A stretch of DNA of 64,000 nucleotides from assembly GCA_023229115.1 (NCBI GenBank), contig JALNZW010000004.1:40197-104196 (forward strand), read 5' to 3'. A model generated the notes under the pieces. It made no database searches. It saw only the letters and a list, made by a program, of their open reading frames with translations, and was not told the origin of the DNA. This DNA comes from Patescibacteria group bacterium (lineage in GTDB: Bacteria; Patescibacteriota; Patescibacteriia; Patescibacteriales; UBA12465). A program made the position numbers and the translations under genes. The stretch's first letter is position 1. Each line of letters begins with the position of its first letter. This document shows positions 3,666-49,770 of the stretch, piece by piece.

Positions 3666-5054
3666 ATGAATTTTTTAATCGCTTTATATTTTTTATTATT
3701 CTTATTTTTAAGCCGTTTAAACCTCAAAATGGCCGTGCTTGTTTTGATATTTTCTTTACCCAGCTATCTCATTAGATTTAATATCTTTTCAGTTCCCACC
3801 ACACTATTAGAAGTAATGATTTTAATTGTCTTTACTTTTTTTCTCTTTAATAAGAGAAAAGAAATATTCAAAAATACAACAAAAAAGTGGGCACAAAAAA
3901 TACCATACCCTTTTTCATGGGAAATAATTTTAATCTTAGCCCTGTCCTTTGTTGCCATTTTCATTGCTGATTTAAATTCTTCGGCTCTAGGTATTTTTAA
4001 GGCTTACTTTTTGGAGCCAATATTTTTATTTATTGTAATTGTTAATATTTTTAGAAGTGAAAAAGATATTAAAAAAATCTTTTATGCTTTATCTCTTTCG
4101 GCCTTAACTGTTTCTTTAGTTGCTATCTGGCAAAAAATAACCGGACAATTTATCTTTAATGAATTTTGGGCTAACCCTGAAAACCGTCGAGTTGTTTCCT
4201 TCTTTGGCTACCCCAATGCTGTCGCCCTATATCTCGGACCAATAATCCCTATAAGTATCGGACTGTTTATCTACAAAATAAAAGAAAGAGGAAGTTTAAA
4301 TTCCTTTTTAAAACAACTAATTCTTTTTATAACCATACTTTCTAGCTGTTTAGCTATATACTTTTCTAAATCCAAGGGCGCTATTTTAGCTATAGGCTTA
4401 TCATTTGTTTTTGTTATTTTTATTTTAATTAAAAGAAAATATAAAATTTACCTTCTAATTTTATTTTTGGCTTTAATACCATCATTTTATTTTTACAAAA
4501 AAGATTGGATAAATTTAAAATTATCATCTAGTCTTTCTTACCAAATAAGATTAGTCGGCTGGCAAGAAACGACCACAATGTTAAATGACGGCAATTTTTT
4601 ATGGGGAGCAGGACTGGCTAATTACCAAAACAAAATAAAAGATTATCACCAAGAGGGCTTGTTTTTTAACAAAGATGCTGATCCAGATTTTAGTAGAAAA
4701 ATAATAATTTTTGATGACAAATATCGAGTCGAGAGATGGCAACCTCTCGAAACTTATCTTTATCCTCATAATATATTTTTAAATTTCTGGACAGAAATTG
4801 GCTTAATTGGAGCAATAATATTTATGTTTTTAATATTTAAATCATTGTTTATATCATTAAAGGCCGGTCTTAAAGAAAAAAATAGTAAAGAAAGTTTTTT
4901 ATATTTAGGAATATTTTCTTCGCTTTTAATTATTATAATTCATGGCATCTTTGATGTGCCTTATTTTAAAAATGATTTATCAGTTCTTTTTTGGGTAATT
5001 TTGAGCATATTAGCCATCTACCAACTAAAACAGAAAACAAAAAAATATGAATAA
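3666..5054 (+). CDS. O-antigen ligase / Wzy-like polytopic membrane protein
   Basis: About 10-12 TM segments and a large external loop. The block YPHNIFLNFWTEIGLIGAIIFMFLI is typical of the O-antigen ligase (Wzy_C) family. Confidence 0.65.
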   Translation: MNFLIALYFLLFLFLSRLNLKMAVLVLIFSLPSYLIRFNIFSVPTTLLEVMILIVFTFFLFNKRKEIFKNTTKKWAQKIPYPFSWEIILILALSFVAIFIADLNSSALGIFKAYFLEPIFLFIVIVNIFRSEKDIKKIFYALSLSALTVSLVAIWQKITGQFIFNEFWANPENRRVVSFFGYPNAVALYLGPIIPISIGLFIYKIKERGSLNSFLKQLILFITILSSCLAIYFSKSKGAILAIGLSFVFVIFILIKRKYKIYLLILFLALIPSFYFYKKDWINLKLSSSLSYQIRLVGWQETTTMLNDGNFLWGAGLANYQNKIKDYHQEGLFFNKDADPDFSRKIIIFDDKYRVERWQPLETYLYPHNIFLNFWTEIGLIGAIIFMFLIFKSLFISLKAGLKEKNSKESFLYLGIFSSLLIIIIHGIFDVPYFKNDLSVLFWVILSILAIYQLKQKTKKYE

Positions 5055-5760
5055 AGAGAACTTAACTAAAGTAATTGCTGAAAATAGTAATTATTCTCGT
5101 CGCAAAGCCGAAGAATTAATAAAATTAAAAATGGTTTCAGTAAATGAGCAAGTGGCTCAACTAGGAGAAAAAGTTTTCGGTGAAGATAAAATAAAAATAA
5201 ATGGACAAAAACTAGTTCGTAATCAAAAAATATACATAAAATTAAATAAGCCAGTTGGCTATGTTTGCACTAACAGAAGCTTTAAGGGAGAAAAAAATAT
5301 TTTTTCTTTAATTAATATAAAAGAAAAAATAGTTTCTATTGGTCGCCTAGATAAGGATAGCTCTGGATTATTGATTTTAACTAATGATGGTGACTTAAAT
5401 TACAAATTAAGTCATCCCAAGTTTGAACATCAAAAAGTATATTTAGTAAAAATAAAAAATGACAATTTATTAAAAAACAACTGCTTTTTAAAAAAAATAA
5501 AAAATGAATTCATGAAAGGTGTGGACATAGAAGAAAAAACATTGGCTAAAGCAAAAAAATTAGAAATAATTAATGAACAAAATTTTAAAATTATTTTAAG
5601 TGAAGGTAAAAAAAGACAAATCAGAAGAATGTTCGGGTTTTTTGGTTTAAAAGTCGAAAGCTTGAAAAGAATTGAATTTGCTGGTATAAAATTAGACGAC
5701 CTAACAGAAGGAGAGTGGAAAAATTTAAACAAAGAAGAAATTAATATTTTAAAAAAATAA
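5047..5760 (+). CDS. Pseudouridine synthase, RsuA/RluB family (S4 domain + catalytic domain)
   Basis: N-terminal S4-like segment and the catalytic motif GRLDKDSSGLLILTNDGDL. Overlaps the upstream gene by 8 nt. Confidence 0.85.
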   Translation: MNKENLTKVIAENSNYSRRKAEELIKLKMVSVNEQVAQLGEKVFGEDKIKINGQKLVRNQKIYIKLNKPVGYVCTNRSFKGEKNIFSLINIKEKIVSIGRLDKDSSGLLILTNDGDLNYKLSHPKFEHQKVYLVKIKNDNLLKNNCFLKKIKNEFMKGVDIEEKTLAKAKKLEIINEQNFKIILSEGKKRQIRRMFGFFGLKVESLKRIEFAGIKLDDLTEGEWKNLNKEEINILKK

Positions 5761-5768: not shown

Positions 5769-5853
5769 GGAGAGATGGCCGAGTGGTTTAAGGCGACGGT
5801 CTCGAACACCGTTTGGGCGCAAGCTCTCTAGGGTTCAAATCCCTATCTCTCCG
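5769..5853 (+). tRNA. tRNA-Ser (anticodon CGA)
   Basis: Acceptor GGAGAGA/TCTCTCC, anticodon stem ACGGT/ACCGT with loop CTCGAAC, long variable arm, T-loop GGGTTCAAATCCC, discriminator G. Confidence 0.9.
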
Positions 5854-6929: not shown

Positions 6930-7100
6930 AACTTCAAACATTTACTTTTTAAATTTCATTAAAAATAAACCCTTCAAATTCAATTTAAAACAATTTTATA
7001 ATTTCTAATAAATAAAATTAATGTTTCTTTAAACAATGCCTCAACTATTCAAACCATTGATTAAAATTGTTTTAGTTTTTTGAAAAAATTATTAAAAAAA

Positions 7101-7129
7101 GAAATAAAAAGGCCGCTTCTTTCGTATAA
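7101..7129 (+). promoter_or_regulatory. ECF-type promoter candidate GAAATAAAAA-N12-CGTATAA upstream of sigma gene
   Basis: GAAAT at 7101-7105, 17-nt spacer, CGTAT at 7123-7127, 13 nt before the ATG at 7142. The same 10-nt and 7-nt blocks with the same spacing recur at 8483-8511. Confidence 0.55.
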
Positions 7130-7141
7130 CTGATAACACCG

Positions 7142-7708
7142 ATGAATTTAAATAATCAAGAAAAATTAGAATATAGTGACGAAGAATTGCTTCAACTATC
7201 GCTAGAAAATACTGGCCATTTCTCTCTTCTTGTTAAAAGATACAAGGAGAAATTTTTTTATTATCTAAAAAGATTTACTGGTTTTAAAAACGACGACATT
7301 GAAGATGTTATTCAAAATTCTTTTATTAAAATATACAAAAATTTAAATAATTTTGACCCTAAACTTAAATTCTCTTCCTGGGCTTATCGCATAGTTCACA
7401 ATGAAGCCATAGATGAAATCAGGCGCCAAAAAAGAAGTAATTTGCCACTTTTACCAGAGCTAGAAATACCAGACGAAGATATTAACTTAAGCGAAGAATT
7501 GGATATAAAAATAGAAAAAGAAAAAGTATTAAAAACATTAAAAGAGTTAAAAGAAGAATATCGAGAAATAATAGTTTTAAGATTTTTTGAACACAAAGAA
7601 TATAAAGAAATTTCTGATATTTTAAAAAAACCAATAGGAACAATCTGCACTCAAATAAACAGGGCTAAAAAACAATTCAAGGATAAATATCAAAAATATG
7701 TTAAATAA
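7142..7708 (+). CDS. RNA polymerase sigma factor, ECF family
   Basis: Region 2 (DVIQNSFIKIYKNL..., FSSWAYRIVHNEAIDEIRR) and region 4 (EYREIIVLRFFEHKEYKEISDILKKPIGTICTQINRAKKQF). Confidence 0.85.
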   Translation: MNLNNQEKLEYSDEELLQLSLENTGHFSLLVKRYKEKFFYYLKRFTGFKNDDIEDVIQNSFIKIYKNLNNFDPKLKFSSWAYRIVHNEAIDEIRRQKRSNLPLLPELEIPDEDINLSEELDIKIEKEKVLKTLKELKEEYREIIVLRFFEHKEYKEISDILKKPIGTICTQINRAKKQFKDKYQKYVK

Positions 7709-8489
7709 TTTGGAAGATAAAATAATTAAAAAAATAGAAAAAGAAAAACTTAAACCGCTGAGTCGTTCATTTTTTGTTTTTAAAAAAATAATTTTTTGGA
7801 TTTTAACATCAATTTTTTTACTTTTCGCTGGACTGTCTTTGTCTGTTATGTTTTTAATAATTAAACATGGCGATTGGGATATTTACCATTTCCTAGGATC
7901 AAGCCCGGGCACCTTCTTTCTAAAAGCCTTTCCTTATTTTTGGCTCTTAGGGGTTCTAGTTTTCTTAATTTTAACCCTCATTAAAACAAAAAAAGCCGAC
8001 GGAACATATGCCTATCCCTTTATATATCAAAGCATTATAGGAATGCTTATTGTTACTATTTTAGCTAGCGGTTTTTATCTGTCTGGAATGAGCCAGAAAA
8101 CAGAAGCATACTTATCCTCCAACAAACTATATCGCAAAGCAAATTATATTCGTTCTTCTTGGGAAAATCCAGAAAAAGGACTGCTGGCCGGAACATTGAA
8201 AATTAAAAATAATGAATTTATTTTAAAAGATTTTTCAGAAATAGAATGGGTTTTGGTTTTACCAGAAAATAACCTCACCGGAAAAGAACTATTGATCGAC
8301 AATGATAAAATAAAAATAATAGGAAAAATAAATACAGAATCACAAAAAAATGAATTTATTGTGCAAGAAATAAGATCATGGAAATGTGGCTGTCCTCATT
8401 GCGCTAAAATGGAAGGGTCTTGCAACGGCTGTTCTGATGAAAATAGTTGTAACTCAGAAAACCAATGCCAAATTTATAAAATGAAATAA
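7698..8489 (+). CDS. Putative anti-sigma / multi-pass membrane protein with C-terminal Cys-rich tail
   Basis: 11-nt overlap with the sigma gene suggests translational coupling. About 3-4 TM segments, a roughly 130-aa soluble C-terminal domain, and a tail ending WKCGCPHCAKMEGSCNGCSDENSCNSENQCQ (7 Cys). Confidence 0.5.
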   Translation: MLNNLEDKIIKKIEKEKLKPLSRSFFVFKKIIFWILTSIFLLFAGLSLSVMFLIIKHGDWDIYHFLGSSPGTFFLKAFPYFWLLGVLVFLILTLIKTKKADGTYAYPFIYQSIIGMLIVTILASGFYLSGMSQKTEAYLSSNKLYRKANYIRSSWENPEKGLLAGTLKIKNNEFILKDFSEIEWVLVLPENNLTGKELLIDNDKIKIIGKINTESQKNEFIVQEIRSWKCGCPHCAKMEGSCNGCSDENSCNSENQCQIYKMK

Positions 8490-8511
8490 AAAAAGAGCCA
8501 ATAACGTATAA
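8483..8511 (+). promoter_or_regulatory. Second copy of ECF-type promoter motif GAAATAAAAA-N12-CGTATAA
   Basis: GAAAT at 8483-8487 overlaps the stop of the upstream gene. A 17-nt spacer precedes CGTAT at 8505-8509, about 40 nt upstream of the ATG at 8552. Confidence 0.55.
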
Positions 8512-8551
8512 GAGATAGAAAGCGCTTTTAATAATTAATTATTTTAAAACT

Positions 8552-8836
8552 ATGAAGAAAATTATTGCTTTAAGTGGTTTATCTTTAGCTCTTTTTATAG
8601 CTGGTTTAATATTTTTTACCAACTCTAGTGCTAACAATGCTTCAGCAAGCGATGTTGAGCAAAACACAAACAACAAAAGAAGCTCTTGTCCATATTTTGC
8701 TGAAAACGGAACATGTGGCTGTGTAGCTAATGGCGGAGAATGTAATTGTGGTCAAAAAGTAGCCAGCACTTGCACTGGGGACCCTATTAAACAGCAAGAA
8801 AAAAGAGCGACTTGTGGATGTCAAAATAATCAATAA
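8552..8836 (+). CDS. Small secreted Cys-rich protein (8 Cys; CGC / CNC motifs)
   Basis: Signal/TM segment IIALSGLSLALFIAGLIFF. The mature part is SSCPYFAENGTCGCVANGGECNCGQKVASTCTG...TCGCQNNQ. Followed by a terminator. Confidence 0.65.
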   Translation: MKKIIALSGLSLALFIAGLIFFTNSSANNASASDVEQNTNNKRSSCPYFAENGTCGCVANGGECNCGQKVASTCTGDPIKQQEKRATCGCQNNQ

Positions 8837-8850
8837 AATCAATTCACACA

Positions 8851-8883
8851 AAAACAGACCAAATTATTTTGGTCTGTTTTTTA
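8851..8883. terminator. Bidirectional terminator
   Basis: Stem CAGACC/GGTCTG (8855-8860 / 8871-8876), A-run before and T-run after. Sits between convergent genes. Confidence 0.7.
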
Positions 8884-8900
8884 TTTTACAAAAAAACTCT

Positions 8901-9305
8901 TTAGTTGCCCCCTTTTTTTAACTCATACAACTCCTTAGATTTTCTAGTTATAGCTAAAATAGTCAAAACAGCAATATAAGCTGAAATTATAGAACCAGAT
9001 AATTCATATAATTTTCCATACAACATATCTAAAATAAAAAGAATTCCAACCAAAACAGACCAAATAACAACAAAAACCTCCCCCGGATGACCATCTTTGT
9101 GTTGGTCGTACCAACGCTCAAACTCTTTATTACTAACATAAATAGCCAGAATACTAACATAAATGGTGGCCGTAGCACTAATTATCCCATCGTAAGCATT
9201 AAAATTAACAAAATCAATAATTATAATAGTAAAAAAGAAGAAAGACCAGGCATTTATTAGCTTGCGCCAAAAATTAAAATTGTTTTTCTGTTTATTTTTT
9301 TTCAT
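8901..9305 (-). CDS. Small integral membrane protein (4 TM), hypothetical
   Basis: ORF with four hydrophobic segments. ATG at 9305 (MKKNKQKNN...) preferred over the upstream start at 9320. Confidence 0.55.
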   Translation of the reverse strand: MKKNKQKNNFNFWRKLINAWSFFFFTIIIIDFVNFNAYDGIISATATIYVSILAIYVSNKEFERWYDQHKDGHPGEVFVVIWSVLVGILFILDMLYGKLYELSGSIISAYIAVLTILAITRKSKELYELKKGGN

Positions 9306-11474: not shown

Positions 11475-11556
11475 TGCGGGCGGAGAGACTCGAACTCTCA
11501 TGGATTGCTCCGCTTGCTCCTAAGGCAAGTGCGTATACCAATTTCGCCACGCCCGC
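11475..11556 (-). tRNA. tRNA-Leu (anticodon TAG)
   Basis: Reverse complement folds as acceptor GCGGGCG/CGCCCGC, anticodon stem CTTGC/GCAAG with loop CTTAGGA, long variable arm, T-loop GAGAGTTCGAGTCTCTC. Confidence 0.9.
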
Positions 11557-31083: not shown

Positions 31084-33793
31084 TTTTTTGTCTCCTTTTA
31101 ATAAATTTAAAAATTTCCATTATTAACAAAACGGAAGAGGCTATTAAAAGTAAATAAAACCATTCTTTTAGTCTTATTCTTTGGGTTTGAAGAGTTTTGC
31201 TCAAAAAGGGATTATAAATAGCAAAAATGTGCAATAGCTGAGCAGCAACTATTGCAAAAAGAATAAGCATGTTTTTCTTAAAAGAAATTTTAAAAATAGA
31301 AACAAGCTCTGAACGACAATTCAAAAGATGAATGTTTTGAAATAAAACCATCAACATTAAAAGGAAATTTCTAGCGTGTACCTCTTCCCAGTTTAAAACA
31401 TTAAGAAGATAATACCAAACAACAAAAACAACGAGACCAATAAACAAACCTGAAATTAAGGTTTGTTGTGTCATTAGTTTATCAAAAATATTTTCTTGTG
31501 GTGATCTTGGTGGTCTCTTCATAACACCGTCCTCACCAGCTTCAAACGCCAAGAATATATCTTGTATTCCATTAGTAACTAAATTTAACCATAAAAGTTG
31601 AGCAGCAAAAAAAGGAAGTGGTAAATTAAAGATAACTGCTAACAAAAAAATAAATATTTCAGCCGCTCCACTAGAAAGAACAAAATAAACAACCTTTCTA
31701 ATATTGTCATAGACAAAACGACCCTCTTCTACTCCTCCAACAATTGAAGCAAAATTATCATCAACAACTATCATGGTAGAAGTCTCTTTGGCTACATCAG
31801 TCCCAGAGCCCATAGCCACTCCAATGTTAGCTTGTTTAAGGGCCGGAGCATCATTTACCCCATCACCAGTAACGGCCACAAAATGACCCATTTTGACCAA
31901 AGCCTTCACTATCTTTAATTTTTGTAAAGGAGAAACTCCGGCAAAGACAGTCGTTCTATTAATTAAATCGACAAACTTGGGTGTAGTTTCTAAATCAGCT
32001 GAACCAAGCTTATCTCCGGTTATAACTTGATCACTAGAGCGAGCAATCCCCAGCTCTTTAGAAATAAACAAGGCAGTGGCCGGATGATCTCCAGTAACCA
32101 TTATAACTTTTATGCCCGCCTCCTTACATTTTTGGACAGCTTGTTTTGAATCTTTTCTTAAAGGATCTATAAAACAAACTAAAGAAAGGAAGTTAATATT
32201 TTTTATTTTTTTATCTTCAAATTTTTTAAAATCAAAATCACTTATATCTATTTTGCCATAAGCAACTGCTAACACTCTATAACCTAGAGAGGCTAAAGCC
32301 TCTCCTTCTTTTTTAATATTGGATTTATCTAAAGACATTGGAGATTCCAAGAACCCAGCCTGAGAACAAAAATCAAGAACACGATTTACGGAGCCCTTAA
32401 CAGCCACTCGAACTTCTTCTGTTTTTTTGTCTTTATAAATTTTGGCTGAAAATCTTTTTTCTGATTCATAAGGAATTCCTAACAAATGTTCAACTGAATT
32501 ATTTATTTCATCCAAAGATAATCCTGCTTTATAAGCCATGGCCAAAAAAGCAACATCCATAGAATCACCATGATGATGCCAAACCTTCTTTGATCTCCAC
32601 AATTTAGCTTCATTACTTAAAACAGAATTTTTTATTATCTCAAAAACAATATTTTTATCTTCCTGATTAAAGCCATCTTCATAATCTAAAGATCCAATTC
32701 CATTATATCCCTGCCCCGAGATATTTACTTTCTTAGAATTGGGAAGATAAATTAATTTGGCTGTTTGTTGATTAACAGTTAATGTCCCAGTTTTGTCGCT
32801 AGCAATCATAGTACAAGAGCCTAAACCCTCTACGGCTGTAAGTTGTCTAACAACAACATTTCTCTTCGACATTCTGGTTGTTGCTACAGATAGGGCCACA
32901 GTTAAGGCCACTGGCAAACCCTCTGGAATAGCTGAAACAGCCAAGGCCACAACTAAGAAAAAAACCTCCATCGGTTCTACTCCCTTCCAAATAGAGATGA
33001 TAGCCAAAACAAGACAAAGAAATAAAATAATAAAAGAAACCCTTTTAGTAAAGCTTTCCATTCTAATAATAAGAGGTGGTTTTGTTTTTTGAGAAGATGA
33101 AATAATATCAGCGATTTTACCAACTTCAGTATTTAAACCAGTTTCAATTACAATGCCCCAGGCACGACCAGAGATAACTGAAGCGCCAGCATAAGCAATA
33201 TTACTTCTCTTATTAAGAGGTGTATCTTTTTTTAATTTTTCCAAGCTCTTACTAACCGCCTCTGATTCTCCAGTTAAAAAAGATTCATCGATTGATAAAT
33301 TTTTGCAATCAAACAATCTTAAATCCGCCGGAACCTTAGATCCAGACTCTAAAAAAACAATATCACCAACCACCAGCTCTTCTGCATTAATATCTTTTTC
33401 AATCCCATGTCTTTTAACTCTAGCCTTTATCTTTAAAAGATTTTGTAAAGCAGCTGCATTTTTCTCAGCCTTATTTTCCTGCCAAGTACCGATGATAGCG
33501 TTAAAAACTATAACTCCAAAAATAAAAGAAGCATCTGTAAATTCTTTTAAAAACAAAGAGATAAGCCCAGCAAAAATCAAAACATAAATTAGAGGGCTTA
33601 AAAACTGGCTAAAAAAAATAATAAAAATATTGGGGACCTTACGACTGGGAAGTTTATTTAAGCCAAACTCTTTTTGCCTTGTAAAAACTTCATGAGAATC
33701 AAGGCCATCTTTGTTTGATTTTAATTGCTCAAAAATAGCTTTAATTTCTAAAGAGTGCCAATCCATTTTTTTATCGTTTGTTTTATTTTCCAT
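31076..33793 (-). CDS. Cation-transporting P-type ATPase (type II, Ca2+/Mg2+-like)
   Basis: Motifs TGES, DKTGTLT, MVTGDHPATA and GDGVNDAPALK, with 10 TM segments. ATG at 33793 (MENKTNDKK...) preferred over 33886. 8-nt overlap with the DUF192 gene. Confidence 0.9.
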   Translation of the reverse strand: MENKTNDKKMDWHSLEIKAIFEQLKSNKDGLDSHEVFTRQKEFGLNKLPSRKVPNIFIIFFSQFLSPLIYVLIFAGLISLFLKEFTDASFIFGVIVFNAIIGTWQENKAEKNAAALQNLLKIKARVKRHGIEKDINAEELVVGDIVFLESGSKVPADLRLFDCKNLSIDESFLTGESEAVSKSLEKLKKDTPLNKRSNIAYAGASVISGRAWGIVIETGLNTEVGKIADIISSSQKTKPPLIIRMESFTKRVSFIILFLCLVLAIISIWKGVEPMEVFFLVVALAVSAIPEGLPVALTVALSVATTRMSKRNVVVRQLTAVEGLGSCTMIASDKTGTLTVNQQTAKLIYLPNSKKVNISGQGYNGIGSLDYEDGFNQEDKNIVFEIIKNSVLSNEAKLWRSKKVWHHHGDSMDVAFLAMAYKAGLSLDEINNSVEHLLGIPYESEKRFSAKIYKDKKTEEVRVAVKGSVNRVLDFCSQAGFLESPMSLDKSNIKKEGEALASLGYRVLAVAYGKIDISDFDFKKFEDKKIKNINFLSLVCFIDPLRKDSKQAVQKCKEAGIKVIMVTGDHPATALFISKELGIARSSDQVITGDKLGSADLETTPKFVDLINRTTVFAGVSPLQKLKIVKALVKMGHFVAVTGDGVNDAPALKQANIGVAMGSGTDVAKETSTMIVVDDNFASIVGGVEEGRFVYDNIRKVVYFVLSSGAAEIFIFLLAVIFNLPLPFFAAQLLWLNLVTNGIQDIFLAFEAGEDGVMKRPPRSPQENIFDKLMTQQTLISGLFIGLVVFVVWYYLLNVLNWEEVHARNFLLMLMVLFQNIHLLNCRSELVSIFKISFKKNMLILFAIVAAQLLHIFAIYNPFLSKTLQTQRIRLKEWFYLLLIASSVLLIMEIFKFIKRRQKNV

Positions 33794-40307: not shown

Positions 40308-40380
40308 GGTGGCTAGAGGGAATCGAACCCTCACTACTGGTACCACAAACCAGTGTTCTAGCCGCTAAACTATAGCCACC
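40308..40380 (-). tRNA. tRNA-His (anticodon GTG) with encoded G-1
   Basis: Reverse complement reads G-GTGGCTA...TAGCCAC-C. Anticodon stem CTGGT/ACCAG with loop TTGTGGT, T-loop GGGTTCGATTCCC. Confidence 0.88.
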
Positions 40381-40401
40381 ATCAACCGAAATATTTAAAA
40401 A

Positions 40402-40932
40402 CTAAATTCGGTAAAAATAAATATTATCATTATTTTCCTTCAGGATTCTTTCTGGTTCAGAATTTGGTAATTTAAAATGATAACTTATAACCAATGTTCC
40501 TGGACGACACTCTGTTTTAAACTTTTTTTCTAATTTAATCATCATTTCTGGACTTAAAAAACAATAAAGTATATCCGCTTCTTTTAAATTAACTTTAAAC
40601 ATGTCCTTTCTAATAATTTTTATAGAACTACCAGAAAGAGCAATTTGAATTTTGGCTAAAATATAAGGAAAAAAAGAATATTCAACCCCAGTCAATTTTT
40701 TGTTACCAAATCTTTGTTCAACTGCCCTTAAAAATCCAGCCTTGCCAGACCCTAATTCGTAAACACATTCATCTCCTTTTAAATCTAAATCTTTCAAAAT
40801 AGTTAAAACAGCTTCAAACTTAGTAGAAATAAAAGGGGCAAATCCTCGAAAAACAATATTATAAAACTGAACAGAAGCTAAAATCAAAATCAAGATTAAA
40901 ACAAATAAAACGAAAAAGAAAAAATAAATCAT
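40402..40932 (-). CDS. Membrane-anchored class I SAM-dependent methyltransferase
   Basis: N-terminal TM, motif I VYELGSGKAGFL, then the DILYCFLSPEMM block. Confidence 0.7.
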   Translation of the reverse strand: MIYFFFFVLFVLILILILASVQFYNIVFRGFAPFISTKFEAVLTILKDLDLKGDECVYELGSGKAGFLRAVEQRFGNKKLTGVEYSFFPYILAKIQIALSGSSIKIIRKDMFKVNLKEADILYCFLSPEMMIKLEKKFKTECRPGTLVISYHFKLPNSEPERILKENNDNIYFYRI

Positions 40933-40962
40933 AAATTTGATTTGATTAAGAGCACTTAAATG

Positions 40963-41034
40963 TGTCCCCGCTAGGAATCGAACCTAGATATTCAGCTTAG
41001 AAGGCTGATGTTCTATCCATTGAACTACAGGGAC
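40963..41034 (-). tRNA. tRNA-Arg (anticodon TCT)
   Basis: Reverse complement GTCCCTG...CGGGGAC-A. The acceptor pairs GTCCCTG with CGGGGAC through a G·U wobble. Anticodon stem TCAGC/GCTGA with loop CTTCTAA, T-loop TAGGTTCGATTCCTA. Confidence 0.88.
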
Positions 41035-41170
41035 AAAAAATTTTAACAACAAAAACAAGTGAGCAAAAAGCTCAATATTTAATAATTTAACAAAGAGAAA
41101 AACAAAAGTCAACTAATAAATTTAATTCATTTTTATTAAATAAAAACAAAAAAATAACAAACAAATTCTA

Positions 41171-41641
41171 TTATTTTTCTCCAGCTTCTTTTTTAAAATA
41201 AAAGCTAAGCAAAAACAAAGAGCCAAAAAATATTAAAACATCAGCCAGATTAAAAACCGTAAAATAATAAAGATCTAAATAATCAACAACAAAAGAATGT
41301 TTTAAACGATCTATCAAATTGCTTAAAGCTCCACAAAAAATAGCTAAAAATCCTAAAAACTCATAATGTCTTTTTTTATAAAACAAAAAAGCCAAATAGA
41401 TTAAAATCAAAAACAAAATAAAAAAAATAAATAAATTTAAAATTAAACCACTAAGCGGCAAAGAAAAAGCTATATATTTATTAGCCGTAAAATTAAATTT
41501 TAAAATTTCACCTAAAATATTTTTGCTTTCCCAAGAATTTATTGCTAAATATTTTAAAACCCGATCTGCAATAAAAAATATAGCTATTAAAAAAATAGCT
41601 ATATTTATGATATTTTGTTTTTTTGAAAAAAATTTATTCAT
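41171..41641 (-). CDS. lspA: Lipoprotein signal peptidase (signal peptidase II)
   Basis: Contains GALSNLIDRL, VVDYL and FNLADV with four TM segments. ATG at 41641 overlaps the upstream gene by 8 nt. Confidence 0.85.
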   Translation of the reverse strand: MNKFFSKKQNIINIAIFLIAIFFIADRVLKYLAINSWESKNILGEILKFNFTANKYIAFSLPLSGLILNLFIFFILFLILIYLAFLFYKKRHYEFLGFLAIFCGALSNLIDRLKHSFVVDYLDLYYFTVFNLADVLIFFGSLFLLSFYFKKEAGEK

Positions 41642-42035
41642 TTTCTTCCTGAAGTTTTGTTTTACATTCAATACAAGAACTGGCAGTTGGCCTAGCTTCT
41701 AATCTTTTTTCGCTTATTTCTCCCCCACAATATTTACAAATATTATAAGTTCCTTTTTCGATTCTGTTTAAAGTAGAGTCAATTTCTTCTAATGTTTTTT
41801 CTAAAACTTTTTCGGCCACAACAGTGGTTGAATATTCACTAATTTCTTGAGCATTCTCATCTGGTTTGTCGCCATACTCAGGAAACTTAGCCACTCTATT
41901 ATCAGCTTCATGTAAATCTTCTTTTGACAAATCATTAAAGTCAGCCAAAATTTGTTTTTTTCTTTCCAAAAGATCCTTCTTTATTTTTTCAACTTTTTTT
42001 ACGTCCAACATACTTTTGAAAAATTTTAATTTCAA
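41634..42035 (-). CDS. DksA/TraR-family C4 zinc-finger protein
   Basis: Coiled-coil N-terminal part plus CKYCGGEISEKRLEARPTASSCIECK (CxxC-N17-CxxC). Confidence 0.8.
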   Translation of the reverse strand: MKLKFFKSMLDVKKVEKIKKDLLERKKQILADFNDLSKEDLHEADNRVAKFPEYGDKPDENAQEISEYSTTVVAEKVLEKTLEEIDSTLNRIEKGTYNICKYCGGEISEKRLEARPTASSCIECKTKLQEENE

Positions 42036-42169
42036 TTAAAATCTTCTAATAAATTCTAAAAATAAGGCCTTTTAAAGGCTTTTACTATTGCTTAGTATAT
42101 ACCAAAAAAATGTTTTTGACAAGCCTAATTTTTTTTGTTATTATTTTCTTGCTTTAAAGCAAAACTAAA

Positions 42170-42243
42170 GGAGCGGTAGTTCAGTTGGTTAGAATGCCTG
42201 CCTGTCACGCAGGAGGTCGCGGGTTCGAGTCCCGTCCGCTCCG
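42170..42243 (+). tRNA. tRNA-Asp (anticodon GTC)
   Basis: Acceptor GGAGCGG/CCGCTCC, anticodon stem CCTGC/GCAGG with loop CTGTCAC, T-arm GCGGGTTCGAGTCCCGT, discriminator G. Confidence 0.92.
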
Positions 42244-42245
42244 CA

Positions 42246-42442
42246 GAGAATGAACGAAGTGAATAAACGAAGGAGTGGCATCAAACCAATTTATTGGTTT
42301 GATGAGGGCTCGAATGCCGGAGCGATGTGCGGAGCTAAGGCGACGCACCGCGAGGCGGGGTCGAGAGTTCTTTGTGAGCGCAACCACGTAAAACGTGGTA
42401 AGCGAACTTAGAAACTCGTGACCGAGTCCCGTCCGCTCCGCA
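42246..42442 (+). other. GC-rich 197-bp element A bounded by a 20-bp direct repeat of the tRNA-Asp 3' end (candidate structured RNA / miniature integrative-element remnant)
   Basis: CGAGTCCCGTCCGCTCCGCA occurs at 42226-42245 (inside the tRNA) and again at 42423-42442. The interior has a 12-bp hairpin CATCAAACCAAT/ATTGGTTTGATG and stems GTGCG/CGCAC and ACCACG/CGTGGT. It is homologous to 52726-52908. Confidence 0.6.
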
Positions 42443-42506
42443 AGTAAGTGGATAAAAAAATAACAAAAATATTTTACGTGACAAGTTATTTCCACTCCGC
42501 ATTTTG

Positions 42507-42578
42507 GCGGGTATCGTATAATGGCTTTTATATCAGCCTTCCAAGCTGAGGATGGGGGTTCGATTCCCCCTACCCGCT
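42507..42578 (+). tRNA. tRNA-Gly (anticodon TCC)
   Basis: Acceptor GCGGGTA/TACCCGC, anticodon stem TCAGC/GCTGA with loop CTTCCAA, T-arm GGGGGTTCGATTCCCCC. Confidence 0.9.
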
Positions 42579-42583
42579 CAAAT

Positions 42584-42616
42584 AAAAAAACAGCTACTTT
42601 CTAGCTGTTTTTTTTA
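42584..42616. terminator. Bidirectional terminator after tRNA-Gly / YibE-F-like gene
   Basis: Stem CAGCTA/TAGCTG (42591-42596 / 42602-42607) flanked by an A-run and a T-run. Confidence 0.75.
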
Positions 42617-42617
42617 T

Positions 42618-43763
42618 TTAATTAAGTCTATCTTTTTTTCTCTTATAGACAAACCACCAAGAAGCAAAGAAAGTAGACAAAGGAACAGACAAGATTATTC
42701 CTATGCTTCCGCTTAGGGCTCTTACTATTTCAGTACTAATTGCCTCACTACTAATCATTTGCTCAACACTAGTAAATGGATTTTCTGGACTAACAAATAA
42801 TATTAAAACTGGCAAAGAAACTCCGGCATAAGCTAGAAAAAGAGTATTGGTCATTGAAGCAATGTGAGAAACCCCGATTTTATGAGCCTTATTAAAAACA
42901 TCTTTCCAGTCTTGATGAGGATTAGCTTCAACTATTTGTTCAACCGCTGCAATTTGAGCTATTATTATATCATCTATTACCCCCAAAGTTCCAATAATTA
43001 CTCCCGCCAATAAAAAACCTTTAAAATTTATAACACTTTGTCCAATATTTAAAAGTATAAAAATATCTTCATTAAAGGCGCCCGACAATTTAGCTAAATT
43101 AATAAAAAGCCAAGAAAAACCTATAACTAAAGATAAACTTAAAAAAATAGACAAAGCAGATATATGAGACTTGGCATTAAAACCCTCTGTTAAATAAACG
43201 ATAAATAATAGTATTAAAAAAGAGCCAACAGAAGTAATCAAAACTGGATTAGCACCATTTAATATTTTAGGAACAATAAAAAATATTATTATTAAAAAGG
43301 TTAAAAAAAGAGAAACTACAGATCTTAAGCCCTTAAACCTACCAACCAAAATTAAAAGTAAAAAAAACAAAGACCCGATTATAATTAAAATATTTTTTCT
43401 AGAATAATCTGTTATATAATAATTATATGAATTTTCGGTCTGATTCCAAGAAGCTAAAACAAAAACTTTTTGCCCTTCTTTATAAATTTTGTTTTCTAGA
43501 ACTTCAATATTGCCAATTCCTGTAAAAATAATCTCCTTATCTTTAAACTCTTTTTCTAAGCCTAACAGGCGAACATTTTGTTGATTTATTATTCGACCAT
43601 CATCTCCTTTCTTTTCTTCCTCATCCATAATTTCCAAAACCTCAGCTTTAAAAACTATATTAGAGTTTTCTTTTGAAGAGTCGCTAGCCAAAACAGGCCT
43701 ATTAACTATAAAAAATACAAAAAATACAAAGGTAAAAACAAATACTTTTCTAATATTATCCAT
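42618..43763 (-). CDS. YibE/F-like polytopic membrane protein
   Basis: Signal/anchor, an external domain of about 110 aa, then 7-8 TM segments. The layout is typical of the YibE/F family; the family call is by architecture only. Confidence 0.5.
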   Translation of the reverse strand: MDNIRKVFVFTFVFFVFFIVNRPVLASDSSKENSNIVFKAEVLEIMDEEEKKGDDGRIINQQNVRLLGLEKEFKDKEIIFTGIGNIEVLENKIYKEGQKVFVLASWNQTENSYNYYITDYSRKNILIIIGSLFFLLLILVGRFKGLRSVVSLFLTFLIIIFFIVPKILNGANPVLITSVGSFLILLFIVYLTEGFNAKSHISALSIFLSLSLVIGFSWLFINLAKLSGAFNEDIFILLNIGQSVINFKGFLLAGVIIGTLGVIDDIIIAQIAAVEQIVEANPHQDWKDVFNKAHKIGVSHIASMTNTLFLAYAGVSLPVLILFVSPENPFTSVEQMISSEAISTEIVRALSGSIGIILSVPLSTFFASWWFVYKRKKDRLN

Positions 43764-43875
43764 AATATTTGGAATAAAATCTATTGCGAAACTAGCCTTA
43801 TTTTGCTAATATTATTTTATCTTCGTATTCTAACAAATTTTTTAAGTTTTGAAAAACAAAAAAACAAACAAAAAA

Positions 43876-46761
43876 ATGATAAAAAAAGATTTAAAAAAAA
43901 GAGCATCAAGCTCTCAATATTACAGACCAAAAAAAATAAAAATGGTTTATAAAAAAGGAGCTAATATTGGTAATCCAAGAAAAAAGAAAAAAAATATTTT
44001 TATCTCTTTTCTGTTTAACAGAAAAACTATTAGAGCTTTTATTCTTCTATTTTTAATAGGAGTTATTATTTCTTTATCAACCATCTTTTTTCTTTCTAAA
44101 GACTTGCCTAATCCCAATCAACTTATTGAAAGAGAGATCGCTCAAAGTACAATTATTTATGATAGAACTGGAGAAAACATATTATATGAATTTCACGGAG
44201 AAGAAAAAAGAACATTAGTAAACTTATCCGAAATTCCGGATCATGCCGAACAAGCAACCATAGCCATTGAAGATAAAAACTTTTACAAACACAAGGGCGT
44301 TAGTTTTTTGGCTATTGCTAGAACCATAATAACCAATGTTTTATATGGTAAAAAAGCTGGGGCGTCAACCTTGACCCAACAATTTGTTAAAAATTCCCTA
44401 TTAACTTCTGAAAAAAAATATTCTCGAAAGATAAAAGAAATGATTATTGCCCAAAGAATAGAAAAAAAATTCCGTAAAGATGAAATTTTACAAATGTATT
44501 TAAATGAAATCCCCTACGGATCTAATGCTTATGGCATCGAAGCCGCTAGCCAAAAATATTTCGGTAAGACTGCCAAAGATTTAGTCTTAGCCGAAAGTGC
44601 TGTTTTGGCAGCCCTGCCACAAGCCCCTAGCAGATATTCTCCTTATGGACCAAACAAAGATCTTTTAATTGGCAGACAACAGTATATTTTAGACTTAATG
44701 CAAGAACAAGGATATATTAATCAAGAAGAAAAAGAAGAAGCCAAAAATTATCAATTAATATTTAAGGGTCCAGAAACAAATATAATAGCTCCTCATTTTG
44801 TAATGCATGTTAAAGAAATATTATCAGAAAAATATGGAACAAAAGAAGTAGAACAAGGTGGTTTAAAAATATATACAACCCTTGATCTAGAAAAACAAAA
44901 AACAGCAGAAGAAGCTATAAAAAATAGAGTCGAAGAAAACGCTTCAAGATTTAATGCCAACAATGCCTCTTTAGTAGCCATTAATCCTGAAAACGGACAA
45001 GTTTTAGCCATGGTTGGTTCAAAAGATTATTTTAATCAAGAAATAGACGGGCAAGTAAACGTTGCTTTAAGATTAAGACAACCAGGATCATCAATGAAGC
45101 CATTAGTTTATGCTACTTTATTCAAAAAAGGTTTTAATCCCAATTCAATTTTGTATGATGTAATTACTAATTTTTCTGCCTCTGGCAAAACCTATGAACC
45201 AAACAATTATAATGGCCAAGAAAGTGGACCAATCTCCATTAGAAAGGCCTTGGCTGGCTCCTTAAACATCCCAGCCGTAAAGGCCTTATATTTGGCAGGA
45301 ATAAATAATGTTATTGAACTAGCTAAAGAAGCGGGCTATACTAGTTTAACCAATCCTGATAATTATGGTCTATCTCTTGTTTTGGGTGGGGCCGAGGTTA
45401 GACTCTTAGAACATGTTAACGCTTACAGTATCTTTGCTCGAGAAGGAGAGATAAGCCCCGTGAGTATAATTTTAAAAGTAGAAGATAAGGATGGTAAAAT
45501 TTTAGAAGAGTTTCAAGAAAGGAAGAAAAAAGTTTTAGAACCAAATATAGCCAAAATGATTAACAGCATTCTATCGGATAATGCTGCCAGGTCTTTTGTT
45601 TTTGGAAAAAGAAATACTTTAATTTTAGAAAACAGACCAGTGGCCGCAAAAACCGGAACAACTAATAACTTTAGAGATGCTTGGACAATAGGCTATACAC
45701 CATCCCTCGTCGCTGGCGTTTGGGTTGGAAATAATGACAATACAGAAATGAAAAGAGGGGCAGACGGCAGTGTAATTGCCGCTCCAATTTGGAACGAATT
45801 TATGAAAAATGCTCTCAAAGATACACCCGTAGAAAATTTTTCTGAGCCAGAAATAGAAAAAACTGGCAAAGCTTTAATTGACGGAGAACCAGTTGGCAAA
45901 ACAATTAAAATTAACAAAGAAACAGGAGATATAGCGACGGAAACCACCCCAGCCGAACTAATAGAAGAAATATTTTTTGCCGATCATCATTCTATCTTAT
46001 ATTATATTGACAAAGAAAATCCCCTAGAGCCAATTCCAAGCAATCCAGAAAATGATCCTCAGTTTAAATTATGGGAAGACCGAGTTTTAGAGTGGGCAAA
46101 AAAACAAGACGAACATTATAATCCCGACATTTTAAATCAAGCTGAAAATATTTATGACCCAGAAAATATCCCCGTCTTTTCTATTAAAAATATAGAAGAT
46201 AATTCAACCATAACTACCGAAGATTTTTCTGTAGAACTACAAGCAACTGCTCCTCGAGGAATATACAAAGTGGATTACTATATAAACGGAAATTTGCTAG
46301 ACAGAAAAACATCTTATCCCTTTGATTTAAACAAAAATATTTCCTTCTTAAATAACGGCTACTATAATTTAAAAGTTGTAGTTTGTGATGATGTTTTGAA
46401 TTGTGCTGAAAAGTCTTTAGAGTTTAATCTAGTTCTAAACAAAAACAACGAAAGGCTTCCCTCTAACCTAAACATTATTTATCCAACCAGTGGACTGGCT
46501 TTAAATTCTATAGACTTTCCTTTAAAAGTTGAAATGATTATTACTAACCCTGATCAAATAATAAAAGTTGATTTATTTACTAAAAACGAAAAAACAGGAG
46601 ATGTTAACAAAGTAAAAACAATAAACAATGTTTTAAATAAAACTATTGAAAGTGAATGGGAAATGCTACCAGAAAGCGGAACATATAAACTTTATGCTGA
46701 ATTTTATGATTGGAATGGTCTTATTAAAAAAAGCAACCAAGTAACTATTAACATAAACTAA
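43876..46761 (+). CDS. Class A penicillin-binding protein (transglycosylase + transpeptidase) with long C-terminal extension
   Basis: GT51 motifs IAIEDKNFYKHKGV, GASTLTQQ and RKIKE. Transpeptidase motifs SSMKP, SLN and KTGTT. About 300 extra C-terminal residues. ATG at 43876 preferred over the TTG at 43849. Confidence 0.9.
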   Translation: MIKKDLKKRASSSQYYRPKKIKMVYKKGANIGNPRKKKKNIFISFLFNRKTIRAFILLFLIGVIISLSTIFFLSKDLPNPNQLIEREIAQSTIIYDRTGENILYEFHGEEKRTLVNLSEIPDHAEQATIAIEDKNFYKHKGVSFLAIARTIITNVLYGKKAGASTLTQQFVKNSLLTSEKKYSRKIKEMIIAQRIEKKFRKDEILQMYLNEIPYGSNAYGIEAASQKYFGKTAKDLVLAESAVLAALPQAPSRYSPYGPNKDLLIGRQQYILDLMQEQGYINQEEKEEAKNYQLIFKGPETNIIAPHFVMHVKEILSEKYGTKEVEQGGLKIYTTLDLEKQKTAEEAIKNRVEENASRFNANNASLVAINPENGQVLAMVGSKDYFNQEIDGQVNVALRLRQPGSSMKPLVYATLFKKGFNPNSILYDVITNFSASGKTYEPNNYNGQESGPISIRKALAGSLNIPAVKALYLAGINNVIELAKEAGYTSLTNPDNYGLSLVLGGAEVRLLEHVNAYSIFAREGEISPVSIILKVEDKDGKILEEFQERKKKVLEPNIAKMINSILSDNAARSFVFGKRNTLILENRPVAAKTGTTNNFRDAWTIGYTPSLVAGVWVGNNDNTEMKRGADGSVIAAPIWNEFMKNALKDTPVENFSEPEIEKTGKALIDGEPVGKTIKINKETGDIATETTPAELIEEIFFADHHSILYYIDKENPLEPIPSNPENDPQFKLWEDRVLEWAKKQDEHYNPDILNQAENIYDPENIPVFSIKNIEDNSTITTEDFSVELQATAPRGIYKVDYYINGNLLDRKTSYPFDLNKNISFLNNGYYNLKVVVCDDVLNCAEKSLEFNLVLNKNNERLPSNLNIIYPTSGLALNSIDFPLKVEMIITNPDQIIKVDLFTKNEKTGDVNKVKTINNVLNKTIESEWEMLPESGTYKLYAEFYDWNGLIKKSNQVTININ

Positions 46762-46780
46762 AAACATTTTCTTCTTCTAT

Positions 46781-46810
46781 AAAAAAACAATCTATTAAGA
46801 TTGTTTTTTT
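46781..46810. terminator. Bidirectional terminator
   Basis: Stem ACAATCT/AGATTGT (46787-46793 / 46798-46804) with loop ATTA, flanked by an A-run and a T-run. Confidence 0.75.
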
Positions 46811-46828
46811 ATTACACATGAAATATTT

Positions 46829-47617
46829 TTACTTAAAAGATTTTTGTTTTTTTAGTTCTTCTTGCCTTGTCTCCTCTTTTTTAGCATCAATTTTTTCTCC
46901 AATCAAATCAATAATATCTTTAGAAAATATTTTTATCATTTCTTTATTTTTTTCTTTTTTTCGATCATAATTTTCTTCTTCAATAAACAATGTTATATCT
47001 GTTAAAGATTTTCCTCCATTTTTAATTTTTTCATTTCTAATTTGATTTTTATTTTCTAAAGTATTGCTAGTTAAATCTAAACAAATTCTAATAAAATTCT
47101 TTTGATTATTTTCATCTAAATAATAAAATTTAAAAAAGGCATCAACACCACAATAATCAAGATGCGACCCTCGGGCTGAATAGTATTCCAAATCAGAATA
47201 TTCACCACCCATTTCATCTACTATAGTCGCATGTAAATCATTAGCGAAATCAGTTGCTGGGTCACAAGAATCAAAACCTCCCAATTGGCTTTCTTCAATA
47301 ATTTCAAATTGAATGTCCTCACTAATTTCTCTTAAAAAAATATGCCTATTTTTAATAACTCTATTTTCCATTATATTTTGCAATTTTGGTTTTATCTCAC
47401 TCTTTAAACGCTCAAACATTTCCTTTTTTTCTAATTTAATCCATGACAAAAAAGACTTAGGATCTTTACAGCTCTTATTGTTTATTAAATATTCAGTAGC
47501 CAAAAAATCAATCAATCTACTTTCAATATTTTCTACATACCTACGATTATTAATAGAACCTAAATAATTTATTTCTTGCTCCACCCCTTTTTTATTTTCA
47601 AAATTTAAATTGTCCAT
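46829..47617 (-). CDS. Hypothetical protein
   Basis: 262-aa ORF with no signal peptide and a Lys/Glu-rich C-terminus. I recognise no motif. Confidence 0.55.
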   Translation of the reverse strand: MDNLNFENKKGVEQEINYLGSINNRRYVENIESRLIDFLATEYLINNKSCKDPKSFLSWIKLEKKEMFERLKSEIKPKLQNIMENRVIKNRHIFLREISEDIQFEIIEESQLGGFDSCDPATDFANDLHATIVDEMGGEYSDLEYYSARGSHLDYCGVDAFFKFYYLDENNQKNFIRICLDLTSNTLENKNQIRNEKIKNGGKSLTDITLFIEEENYDRKKEKNKEMIKIFSKDIIDLIGEKIDAKKEETRQEELKKQKSFK

Positions 47618-47622
47618 ATAAT

Positions 47623-47694
47623 AAAATTAAAGTGTTCCCACCACGAATCGAACGTGGATCTAGAACTTAGGAGGTTCTTGTTTTATCCATTAAA
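47623..47694 (-). tRNA. tRNA-Arg (anticodon CCT)
   Basis: Reverse complement GTTCCCA...TGGGAAC-A. Anticodon stem AGAAC/GTTCT with loop CTCCTAA, T-arm CCACGTTCGATTCGTGG. Confidence 0.88.
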
Positions 47695-47763
47695 CTATGG
47701 GAACATTGCTAATATTTATAAATTTAACAAGCTCAAAAACAAAAGTCAAACTATTTTTTTTCT

Positions 47764-47792
47764 TTGACAAAAGGATAATATTTACTTAAAAT
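47764..47792 (+). promoter_or_regulatory. Sigma-70 promoter TTGACA-N17-TAAAAT
   Basis: TTGACA at 47764-47769, 17-nt spacer, TAAAAT at 47787-47792, about 50 nt before the bactofilin gene. Confidence 0.55.
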
Positions 47793-47843
47793 TAAAATAG
47801 AAGATAAACTCAAAAATTTAATTAATAAATTAAATCAAATCTT

Positions 47844-48254
47844 ATGTTTAAAAAAGATCAAAAATTTGAAAATTTTACTGAAGCAGAAACTATTATTGGA
47901 GAATCTGTCTTGGTAAAAGGGAATTTTGAAAGCAATGGAAATTTAATAATAAATGGTTCACTTGAAGGAGAAATAAAGACCAAAGGTGCTGTTTTAATTG
48001 GAGAAAAATCAAAAATAAATGCTAACATTTCCGCTCAAGAAATGATGGTTAAGGGTAATGTAGTTGGTAATTTAAATATATCTGACTACTTAGCCATCGG
48101 CGAAAATGCTAAAATACTAGGAGATATTAAATGTTCTCAAATATCTATAGAAAGAGGAGCTGAAATAAATGGACAAGTTTCAATCAGTAATCAAGGAAAT
48201 AAAAAAGAAAAAAATATTGAAATTGAAAAAATAGAAATCAATAATTCTCTATAA
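47844..48254 (+). CDS. Bactofilin (polymer-forming cytoskeletal protein)
   Basis: Repetitive beta-helix pattern (VKGNFESNGNLIINGSLEGEIKTKGAVLIGEKSKINANISAQEMMVKGNVVGNLN...). Confidence 0.85.
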   Translation: MFKKDQKFENFTEAETIIGESVLVKGNFESNGNLIINGSLEGEIKTKGAVLIGEKSKINANISAQEMMVKGNVVGNLNISDYLAIGENAKILGDIKCSQISIERGAEINGQVSISNQGNKKEKNIEIEKIEINNSL

Positions 48255-48274
48255 AAATCAAAATAAAAACAATT

Positions 48275-48997: not shown

Positions 48998-49013
48998 TGT
49001 TCTACGTAGAACA
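48998..49013. repeat. Palindrome copy 1 (TGTTCTACGTAGAACA)
   Basis: Perfect 16-bp palindrome starting 1 nt after the stop codon of the kinase-like gene. Confidence 0.9.
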
Positions 49014-49167
49014 ATTTAAAAACATTAAAAAATCTTAAAAACAACTAAAACCAGCATAAAAAAACTCTAACTATATAATAAGCCCAAAAAAACATAAATA
49101 TTAAAAACTACAAATAACTTTTTGAATTACTAGTAAAACACAAGAACTAATAAATATTTTAAAAATA

Positions 49168-49191: not shown

Positions 49192-49198
49192 ATAATTT

Positions 49199-49762: not shown

Positions 49763-49770
49763 ATTAAACT

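Follow-up and report, generated by a model that had tools for sequence, protein, structure and literature searches.

The window analysed here, meaning the whole 64,000-nucleotide (nt) stretch of contig JALNZW010000004.1 from a Patescibacteria group bacterium, is AT-rich (29% G+C) and carries on its plus strand a set of genes for an extracytoplasmic function (ECF) sigma factor, a membrane protein and a secreted Cys-rich peptide. The sigma open reading frame (ORF; 7142-7708, 188 aa) overlaps by 11 nt, as the original prediction had stated, that of the membrane protein (7698-8489, 263 aa), a putative anti-sigma factor and sensor, and the peptide gene follows at 8552-8836 (94 aa). Two copies of a putative ECF promoter, called P1 (7101-7129) and P2 (8483-8511) below, stand before the sigma gene and the peptide gene, respectively. 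A GC-rich palindrome, AAGCGCTT, lies after P2 at 8520-8527, and an intrinsic terminator found by a terminator scan, with a 14-bp stem and then a T-run (8850-8881), ends the unit. No comparable intrinsic terminator was found between P1 and 8850-8881, so that read-through from P1 and initiation at P2 would together make the peptide the main output. Comparison with related loci shows the sigma factor, membrane protein and secreted peptide, with their two sigma-specific promoters, to form one unit, and we consider it very probable that this unit is a self-contained three-gene sigma/anti-sigma/effector circuit of the Patescibacteria, or candidate phyla radiation (CPR).

The sigma factor matches the Pfam domains Sigma70_r2 (E=3.2e-17) and Sigma70_r4_2 (E=3.1e-12) and has no region 3; with only regions 2 and 4 in 188 aa it is an ECF (group 4) member of the sigma-70 family. 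It scores 103.5 bits against NCBIfam TIGR02937 (cutoff 42.9). The best specific NCBIfam model is SigW, whose two equivalog models (NF007223 and TIGR02948) give 93.8 and 86.5 bits against cutoffs of 209 and 243. Bacillus subtilis SigW is also the best PDB match (5wuq, E=1.5e-19), and CnrH is among the PDB matches (E=4.2e-9). Since the scores fall far under the SigW equivalog cutoffs, the protein is not a SigW orthologue. Sigma factor and promoter are ordinary, of the SigW type.

The promoter motif, GAAATAAAAA-N12-CGTATAA, occurs exactly twice, on the plus strand, at the two places named by the original prediction (7101-7129 and 8483-8511). P1 consists of a -35 element GAAAT(AAAA) at 7101-7109 and a -10 element CGTATA at 7123-7128; the corresponding parts of P2 lie at 8483-8491 and 8505-8510. 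The distance between GAAAT and CGT is 17 nt, again as predicted, and the reduced pattern GAAAT-N17-CGTA finds the same two sites and no others in the window. The -35 of P2, ATGAAATAA, doubles as the closing Met-Lys-stop (ATG AAA TAA, 8481-8489) of the sensor gene, which bears out the claim that the second copy overlaps the stop of the membrane-protein gene and precedes the 94-aa ORF. The motif resembles the sigma-W promoter type, with -35 TGAAAC and -10 CGTA (PMC5758882). An AAC-type -35 with a CGT-type -10 thus precedes the sigma's own gene as a putative autoregulatory ECF promoter.

For comparison, related loci (designated by L numbers) were taken from GTDB genomes, JGI metagenomes and other assemblies; two of them (L022 and L023) end before the target gene, that is, the gene in the place of the peptide gene. 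All three genes and both promoter copies are kept in related metagenomic loci, about 15 in number, among which membrane-protein identity ranges from 29 to 86%. In the loci that cover the region, an ECF sigma gene lies directly 5′ of the membrane-protein gene, GAAA[T/C/G]AAA-N12/13-CGTA stands just 5′ of the sigma gene, and a second copy at or just past the membrane-gene stop is followed by a small signal-peptide ORF. P1 is found at the same place in L001-L006, L013, L014, L016, L017, L019, L020, L023 and L024, and P2 is conserved in all related loci; the signal-peptide ORF at this position is Cys-rich in L001-L006, L013, L014, L019 and L024. The flanking genes differ (L003, L004, L005, L006, L014, L017-L021 and L024), which indicates that the three genes travel as a unit. 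As in the window, the -35 of P2 also serves as the last codons of the sensor gene in L002, L006 and L019, and in L024 P2 lies wholly within the 3′ end of the sensor ORF.

The two promoters of a genome change together. The -35 begins with GAAAT in both copies in most loci, with GAAAC in both copies in L003 and with GAAAG in both copies in L013, L016, L017 and L020. L016 has CGTAAT for both of its -10 elements, and L021 has CGTT for both; the two spacers measure 16 nt each in L016 and L020, and 17 nt each in all the other loci. Such covariation within genomes is as expected for two sites read by one co-evolving sigma factor. The original prediction had named as a check that the Cys-rich ORF and both motif copies should be conserved next to orthologous sigma genes; they adjoin orthologous and also distant sigma genes, in differing surroundings. 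Its core, an autoregulated ECF sigma with a coupled anti-sigma-like partner and the peptide as second target, appears well supported by these conserved and covarying promoters.

A weight matrix was built from the promoters of the other loci alone, leaving out the window sites. Its top two sites in the whole window are 8483 (score 20.3) and 7101 (14.5), followed by a site at 11.5; with random windows the maxima of the same matrix averaged 14.1 and reached 18.1 at most. P2 is significant on its own, because 20.3 exceeds the random-window scores, and P1 is significant only jointly with its position and conservation. Since these are the top two sites, the regulon within the 64 kb would be the module itself. 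A repeat arising by chance in an AT-rich genome, rather than a promoter, might be thought of in view of the 29% G+C and the A-rich -35 block. This explanation is excluded: on both strands of the window (128 kb scanned) only the two sites occur even when two mismatches are allowed, against an expectation of 0.19; two or more sites arose in 0 of 100 dinucleotide shuffles; about 15 loci conserve the pair and covary in it, and the matrix ranks the same two sites highest. The motif is therefore not common, which was the other check named beforehand.

P1 lies just upstream of the sigma gene as predicted, but the 13 nt then given is a coordinate difference, and the true gap from the end of P1 (7129) to the ATG (7142) is 12 nt. 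So short a gap would leave the sigma mRNA with little or no leader and without a Shine-Dalgarno sequence. The -10 hexamer is 5-15 nt from the sigma start in many of the related loci as well (L002, L006, L013, L017 and L019).

The palindrome AAGCGCTT, of the form (A)AGCGCT(T), begins about 10 nt 3′ of the P2 -10, around the predicted transcript start; it is single-copy in the window, and P1 is without it. A palindrome is found at the same offset in L001-L007, L014, L019 (GAGCGCTC) and L022 (TGAGCGCTCA). A stable small hairpin with compensatory arms takes its place in L018 and L020 (GAAAC-CGGCC-GTTTC) and in L021 (AGAGC-CGGCC-GCTCT). The palindrome after P2 could be an operator or a 5′-end element. 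An RNA hairpin at this site of the window was considered and rejected, since it is not stable (0.0 kcal/mol), and no RNA structure is claimed.

The membrane protein was modelled with AlphaFold2 (AF2) from a 23-sequence alignment, with a mean predicted local distance difference test (pLDDT) score of 76.5. The model has an N-terminal helix (aa 3-16), transmembrane (TM) helices at aa 23-57, 80-100 and 106-129 with short juxtamembrane helices, a five-stranded barrel at aa 162-227 (8181-8378; pLDDT about 90 or more) and a tail, aa 229-263 (8382-8486), that is disordered (pLDDT < 50). The N-terminus and the TM2-TM3 loop are rich in Lys and Arg, which points to an N-in, C-out topology; from this three-TM model we infer that barrel and tail are extracytoplasmic. 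A Foldseek comparison of the model with the PDB returned only generic oligonucleotide/oligosaccharide-binding (OB) folds (RMI2, IF1 and YgiW, 1nnx) and no informative relative. The Pfam family BOF (PF04076) scores 16.6 bits against a threshold of 25.8 (E=0.008) and matches only two of 33 family members; the likeness to 1nnx is at fold level only. No Pfam or NCBIfam family matches the membrane protein above threshold.

Proteins of the window match metagenome-assembled genomes labelled Patescibacteria group bacterium. Close homologues are few among 5.8 billion proteins (24 for the membrane protein and six for the peptide). An exhaustive profile search for the membrane protein yielded, at E<=1e-3, at least 2,462 cluster representatives (50% identity), 588 of which reach E<=1e-30, all of them titled 'hypothetical' and none with a Pfam domain. 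The hosts are Pacebacteria, Moranbacteria, Parcubacteria, CPR3 and similar groups, and this kind of module looks widespread in CPR bacteria on the sequence record. Some relatives are titled Atribacteria, Actinobacteria or Saprospiraceae, and several of L002-L008 'uncultured Gammaproteobacteria bacterium'; these are probably mislabelled or contaminated bins. Most family members align to profile positions 1-230 only, their tails diverging after the E-I-R-P-W that ends the barrel, and in 19 of 92 representatives the tail holds at least four Cys, nearly always beginning within three residues of the Trp. The tail is thus the variable module of the family. At the other end, the N-terminal ~30 residues (K-x-L-x-K-I-x-K-x-x-I-x-P-x-P-K-W-x-F) are among the best conserved parts, which fits what would be expected of a sigma-binding segment.

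An ECF sigma gene is directly upstream in all 13 family loci with a readable position. The adjacency and co-conservation that mark anti-sigma genes are thus found here, the membrane-protein gene being at +1 to the sigma gene with the 11-nt overlap. From the invariable +1 position and the N-terminal conservation we take the membrane protein as the cognate anti-sigma factor, which it probably is. Domain searches with Pfam and NCBIfam found no zf-HC2, RskA or other anti-sigma domain in it, and only about 20-30 cytoplasmic residues precede TM1; class I anti-sigma factors have an N-terminal domain of about 70-90 aa, with an HxxxCxxC motif in the zinc-binding (ZAS) members, and this N-terminus of about 22-30 aa has no His or Cys. 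On these two grounds the protein might instead be a co-transcribed effector or transporter-like protein, with the sigma controlled in another way, such as by transcription alone. Against this stand the strongly conserved N-terminal helix and the position immediately behind, and adjoining or overlapping, an ECF sigma gene, invariable as sampled in the family of ~2,462 clusters; short anti-sigma factors outside class I, such as CnrY, also exist. In the ECF classification, CnrY-like anti-sigma factors are listed, as is one group with a three-TM anti-sigma factor, which is possibly the family of the window or possibly another (PMC7826278). We regard a role other than anti-sigma factor as very unlikely.

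The sequence given for the tail by the original prediction, WKCGCPHCAKMEGSCNGCSDENSCNSENQCQIYKMK, is correct; it contains seven Cys in the pattern C-x-C-x2-C-x6-C-x2-C-x5-C-x5-C, and in 22 of 23 close homologues conservation of these Cys columns reaches 90% or more. Its comparison of CPHC with the DsbA active site does not stand, since there is no thioredoxin fold and the homologues have CSHC, CLHC, CQKC, CRHC or CPRC instead. A DsbA- or thioredoxin-like reading of the tail was rejected, the segment being disordered behind an OB-fold and giving no match to a thioredoxin family in Pfam.

The 94-aa product of the downstream gene is, as predicted, a secreted protein with eight Cys (C46, 55, 57, 64, 66, 74, 88 and 90). 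A Sec-type signal is predicted at aa 1-32 (8552-8647) with an A-S-A cleavage site, A-x-A being conserved, and leaves a mature peptide of ~62 aa, 13% of them Cys and arranged in CxC-type motifs. The AF2 model (pLDDT 42.7) has an N-terminal helix only, the rest being disordered. Neither Pfam nor NCBIfam contains a match. The composition is metallothionein-like, with eight Cys in ~62 aa, CxC motifs and disorder, and the peptide resembles apo-metallothioneins in being disordered and CxC-rich; the signal peptide is atypical of metallothioneins, and no metallothionein family matches. Among close homologues the signal region (consensus LSGxSxALFxAGLIFFANS) has 25 of 32 columns invariant, compared with 27 of 62 in the mature part. 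Such conservation is unusual for a plain signal peptide, and the region may stay in the membrane or contact the sensor. A precursor of a ribosomally synthesized and post-translationally modified peptide (RiPP) or bacteriocin was considered and rejected, because the module has no conserved neighbours for modification, export or immunity. A Peptidase_C39 gene occurs near L019 only.

When the loci are compared, the type of sensor tail and the type of target agree in every one examined. A Cys-rich tail goes with a wholly Cys-rich secreted peptide in the window clade and in L013, L014, L019 and L024. In L020 the Cys-rich tail goes with a helical secreted protein that ends in ...GGENCSCGEGAGSCAMK, and in L017, L018 and L021 a Gly/Arg-rich tail goes with targets that are homologous to the helical protein of L020 and end in a Gly/Arg(/Met)-rich stretch. 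The cores of the L018 and L020 targets are homologous, and their ends switch together with the sensor tail. The helical targets gave no Pfam or NCBIfam match above threshold, and the L021 target found only chance matches among PDB sequences. As an observation on sequences, this covariation appears real but preliminary, and it favours, without settling, a matched sensor and effector.

In a wider form the match would be a general design principle of a large CPR-specific ECF family (at least 2,462 clusters), in which a disordered tail of the anti-sigma factor, placed behind the extracytoplasmic OB-fold, mimics the chemistry of the tail of the single secreted protein that it controls, whether Cys-rich or Gly/Arg-rich; we offer this as a conjecture, and think it rather less probable than its opposite. 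If it were true, the sensor would gauge whether its own effector's chemistry is free or occupied, through a tethered pseudo-ligand or a matched-buffer feedback, and the Cys-rich version would serve outside the cell as a metallothionein-like or thiol-buffer system that an ECF sigma controls directly.

On the comparative evidence for P1 and P2, the sigma would transcribe its own operon from P1 and also the peptide gene from P2. The three-TM protein would be its cognate anti-sigma factor, as obligate adjacency, translational coupling and topology suggest, and would hold the sigma by the short conserved cytoplasmic N-terminal helix while exposing the OB-fold and Cys tail outside. The tail may sense a thiol-reactive stimulus, be it an oxidant or a soft metal ion such as Cu, Zn or Cd; its metal loading or oxidation would inactivate or destabilise the anti-sigma factor and so release the sigma. 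The induced CxC-rich peptide would then chelate or quench the stimulus outside the cell and reset the sensor, closing a negative feedback. We lean, with some reserve, towards this autoregulated sigma/anti-sigma/effector loop that senses and buffers extracytoplasmic thiol-reactive stress, and put forward a metal or redox signal, taken as a separate claim, as a tentative suggestion only.

Three neighbourhoods offer supporting context for a thiol-reactive input. At the locus of P0221, a family member without a Cys tail, an Fe/Mn superoxide dismutase gene (PF02777) follows after 20 nt at the target position. Downstream in L020 (2814-4076) a glutaredoxin-like domain is fused to a CcdA/DsbD-like membrane domain, and L017 is adjoined (4436-5750) by a cluster of an ArsP-type permease, Thioredoxin_3 and an ArsR-type helix-turn-helix protein.

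The covariation of sensor and target tails across the family can also be read as tethered pseudo-ligand signalling, with the OB-fold as receptor for the Cys-rich region of the peptide and its binding site occupied in cis by the sensor's own, similar tail. The peptide would then displace the tail, giving autoinduction with quorum-like positive feedback, or would act as a feedback inhibitor like CpxP or ZraP. It would suit this reading that the tail directly follows an OB-fold, a module that typically binds ligands or peptides, that both promoters seem to depend on one sigma, a feedback topology, and that the signal/TM region of the peptide is conserved more than its mature part. However, the low-complexity, disordered tails with their unmatched Cys spacings favour shared chemistry over a docking interface, and the superoxide dismutase at the target position of one relative and the target-less L016 sit ill with an obligate ligand. 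We think the pseudo-ligand account unlikely.

A generic envelope-stress module is a further alternative, responding to membrane or cell-wall damage, for instance by regulated proteolysis as RsiW and RsiV do, with the peptide as a structural, adhesive or antimicrobial disulfide-rich product and with tails that are alike only because duplication or gene conversion has acted between neighbouring stretches of low complexity. Of known types, SigW, which serves envelope stress in Bacillus, comes nearest to this sigma and promoter; the tail ends < 100 nt from the target gene, with P2 overlapping its last codons, so that local sequence exchange is plausible; and the conserved module is without a metal or redox gene. 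But the Cys positions of both proteins are under purifying selection across 48-86% identity, the tail types of L018 and L020 switch jointly while the rest of the target remains homologous, and the module is not linked to genes for a bacteriocin, immunity, export or modification. The probability of this alternative is lower still than that of a pseudo-ligand.

Several points, in addition to the missing anti-sigma domain and the short cytoplasmic segment, weigh against the thiol-sensing loop that we prefer. Taken by itself, P1 does not outscore the best site that a random window offers. The tails of 58 of the 92 family representatives have no Cys and are rich in Gly, Arg and Lys, and since most tails are of this kind, the signal of the family as a whole cannot be thiol chemistry. 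Neither a metal transporter nor a redox enzyme belongs to the conserved module. L016 (3298-3560) keeps P2, the Cys-tail sensor and the terminator but has lost the target ORF, of which only an 8-codon remnant is seen. The tail/target covariation rests on ~8 lineages, some of them related, and could come from local duplication of low-complexity sequence between adjacent genes. Finally, the Cys spacings of tail and peptide differ, so their likeness is compositional and not homologous.

The window contains a second ECF sigma gene on the minus strand (2246-2830), followed by a gene for a 550-aa single-TM protein (566-2218). No GAAAT/CGTA motif lies upstream of it, and its upstream sequence and partner differ, which argues that the motif is specific to the sigma of 7142-7708. 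A 56-aa ORF with eight Cys on the minus strand (32847-33017), the only other Cys-rich small ORF of the window, has no motif near it and may be spurious. An Rfam scan of the whole window found ten tRNA genes only, at 5769-5853, at 11475-11556 and within 40308-57413, and none in 7000-9000. L013 and L014 each have a tRNA gene just 5′ of P1. At the same side of P1 in L024 (1256-1395) there is a 14-codon micro-ORF, MCNQIGGGCGCCGC, with a sigma-70-like promoter of its own (TTGACA-N17-TATAAT) and a strong terminator.

To our knowledge, Patescibacteria have tiny genomes with few regulators, and their sensing of the environment is almost unknown. A literature search gave no relevant paper on ECF sigma or anti-sigma factors in CPR/Patescibacteria, or on OB-fold anti-sigma factors. 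The module defines a large unannotated family of putative anti-sigma factors (~2,462 clusters at 50% identity), for which neither Pfam nor NCBIfam has a model, together with a computationally recognisable promoter motif and a minimal regulon of one secreted protein. With these features it would be among the most tractable regulatory circuits in CPR bacteria, and its small size would allow it to be rebuilt in Escherichia coli or B. subtilis. Should the matching of tails be true, the specificity of an ECF pathway would here be set in a new manner, and Cys-rich peptides outside the cell would be suggested to buffer metals or redox state in organisms that live attached to other cells; if false, a well-delimited new ECF/anti-sigma group would still be gained for classification. 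An ECF sigma/anti-sigma module is in itself of a known kind; what appears new, as far as sequences tell, is the CPR-wide, undescribed anti-sigma architecture and the match between sensor and effector tails.

Among known systems, sigma-W/RsiW of B. subtilis, the original group ECF01 (PMC5758882), provides the best sigma match, the same promoter type and an autoregulated operon with the anti-sigma gene at +1. However, RsiW is a zinc-binding class I protein with one TM helix, while the window protein has three TM helices, an OB-fold and a Cys tail and is without an anti-sigma domain; moreover, the window -35 is followed by an A-tract instead of a T-tract, and the apparent regulon in the window is the module only. 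Metal or redox input through Cys is found in CorE2/ECF238, ECF287 and ECF288, which have a Cys-rich C-terminal extension of the sigma factor (PMC7826278). As far as that classification goes, Cys-rich ECF inputs are known only as such cytoplasmic extensions of the sigma itself (PMC7826278). Here, in contrast, the sigma has no extension, and the Cys-rich segment is at the extracytoplasmic end of its partner.

The Cupriavidus CnrH/CnrY/CnrX system joins extracytoplasmic metal sensing to an ECF sigma through a short class II membrane anti-sigma factor, and the very short cytoplasmic sigma-binding segment predicted here is a point of likeness. Cnr has a separate periplasmic sensor, CnrX, and induces an efflux pump, whereas in the window sensor and putative anti-sigma factor are fused in one protein, with a secreted Cys-rich peptide as output; no homology of the module to the Cnr system was found. 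With CpxP-CpxA, ZraP-ZraS and Spy the module shares the feature that the main induced product is a small secreted protein matching what the sensor detects, and the Gly/Met/His-rich tail of ZraP resembles the non-Cys targets of L017, L018 and L021, although these are two-component and not ECF systems and no sequence similarity was found. The peptide itself is like MymT, SmtA and the plant-type CxC metallothioneins, which are small, disordered without metal and rich in repeated CxC/CGC; the bacterial metallothioneins that we know of are cytoplasmic and without signal peptides, whereas the window peptide has one.

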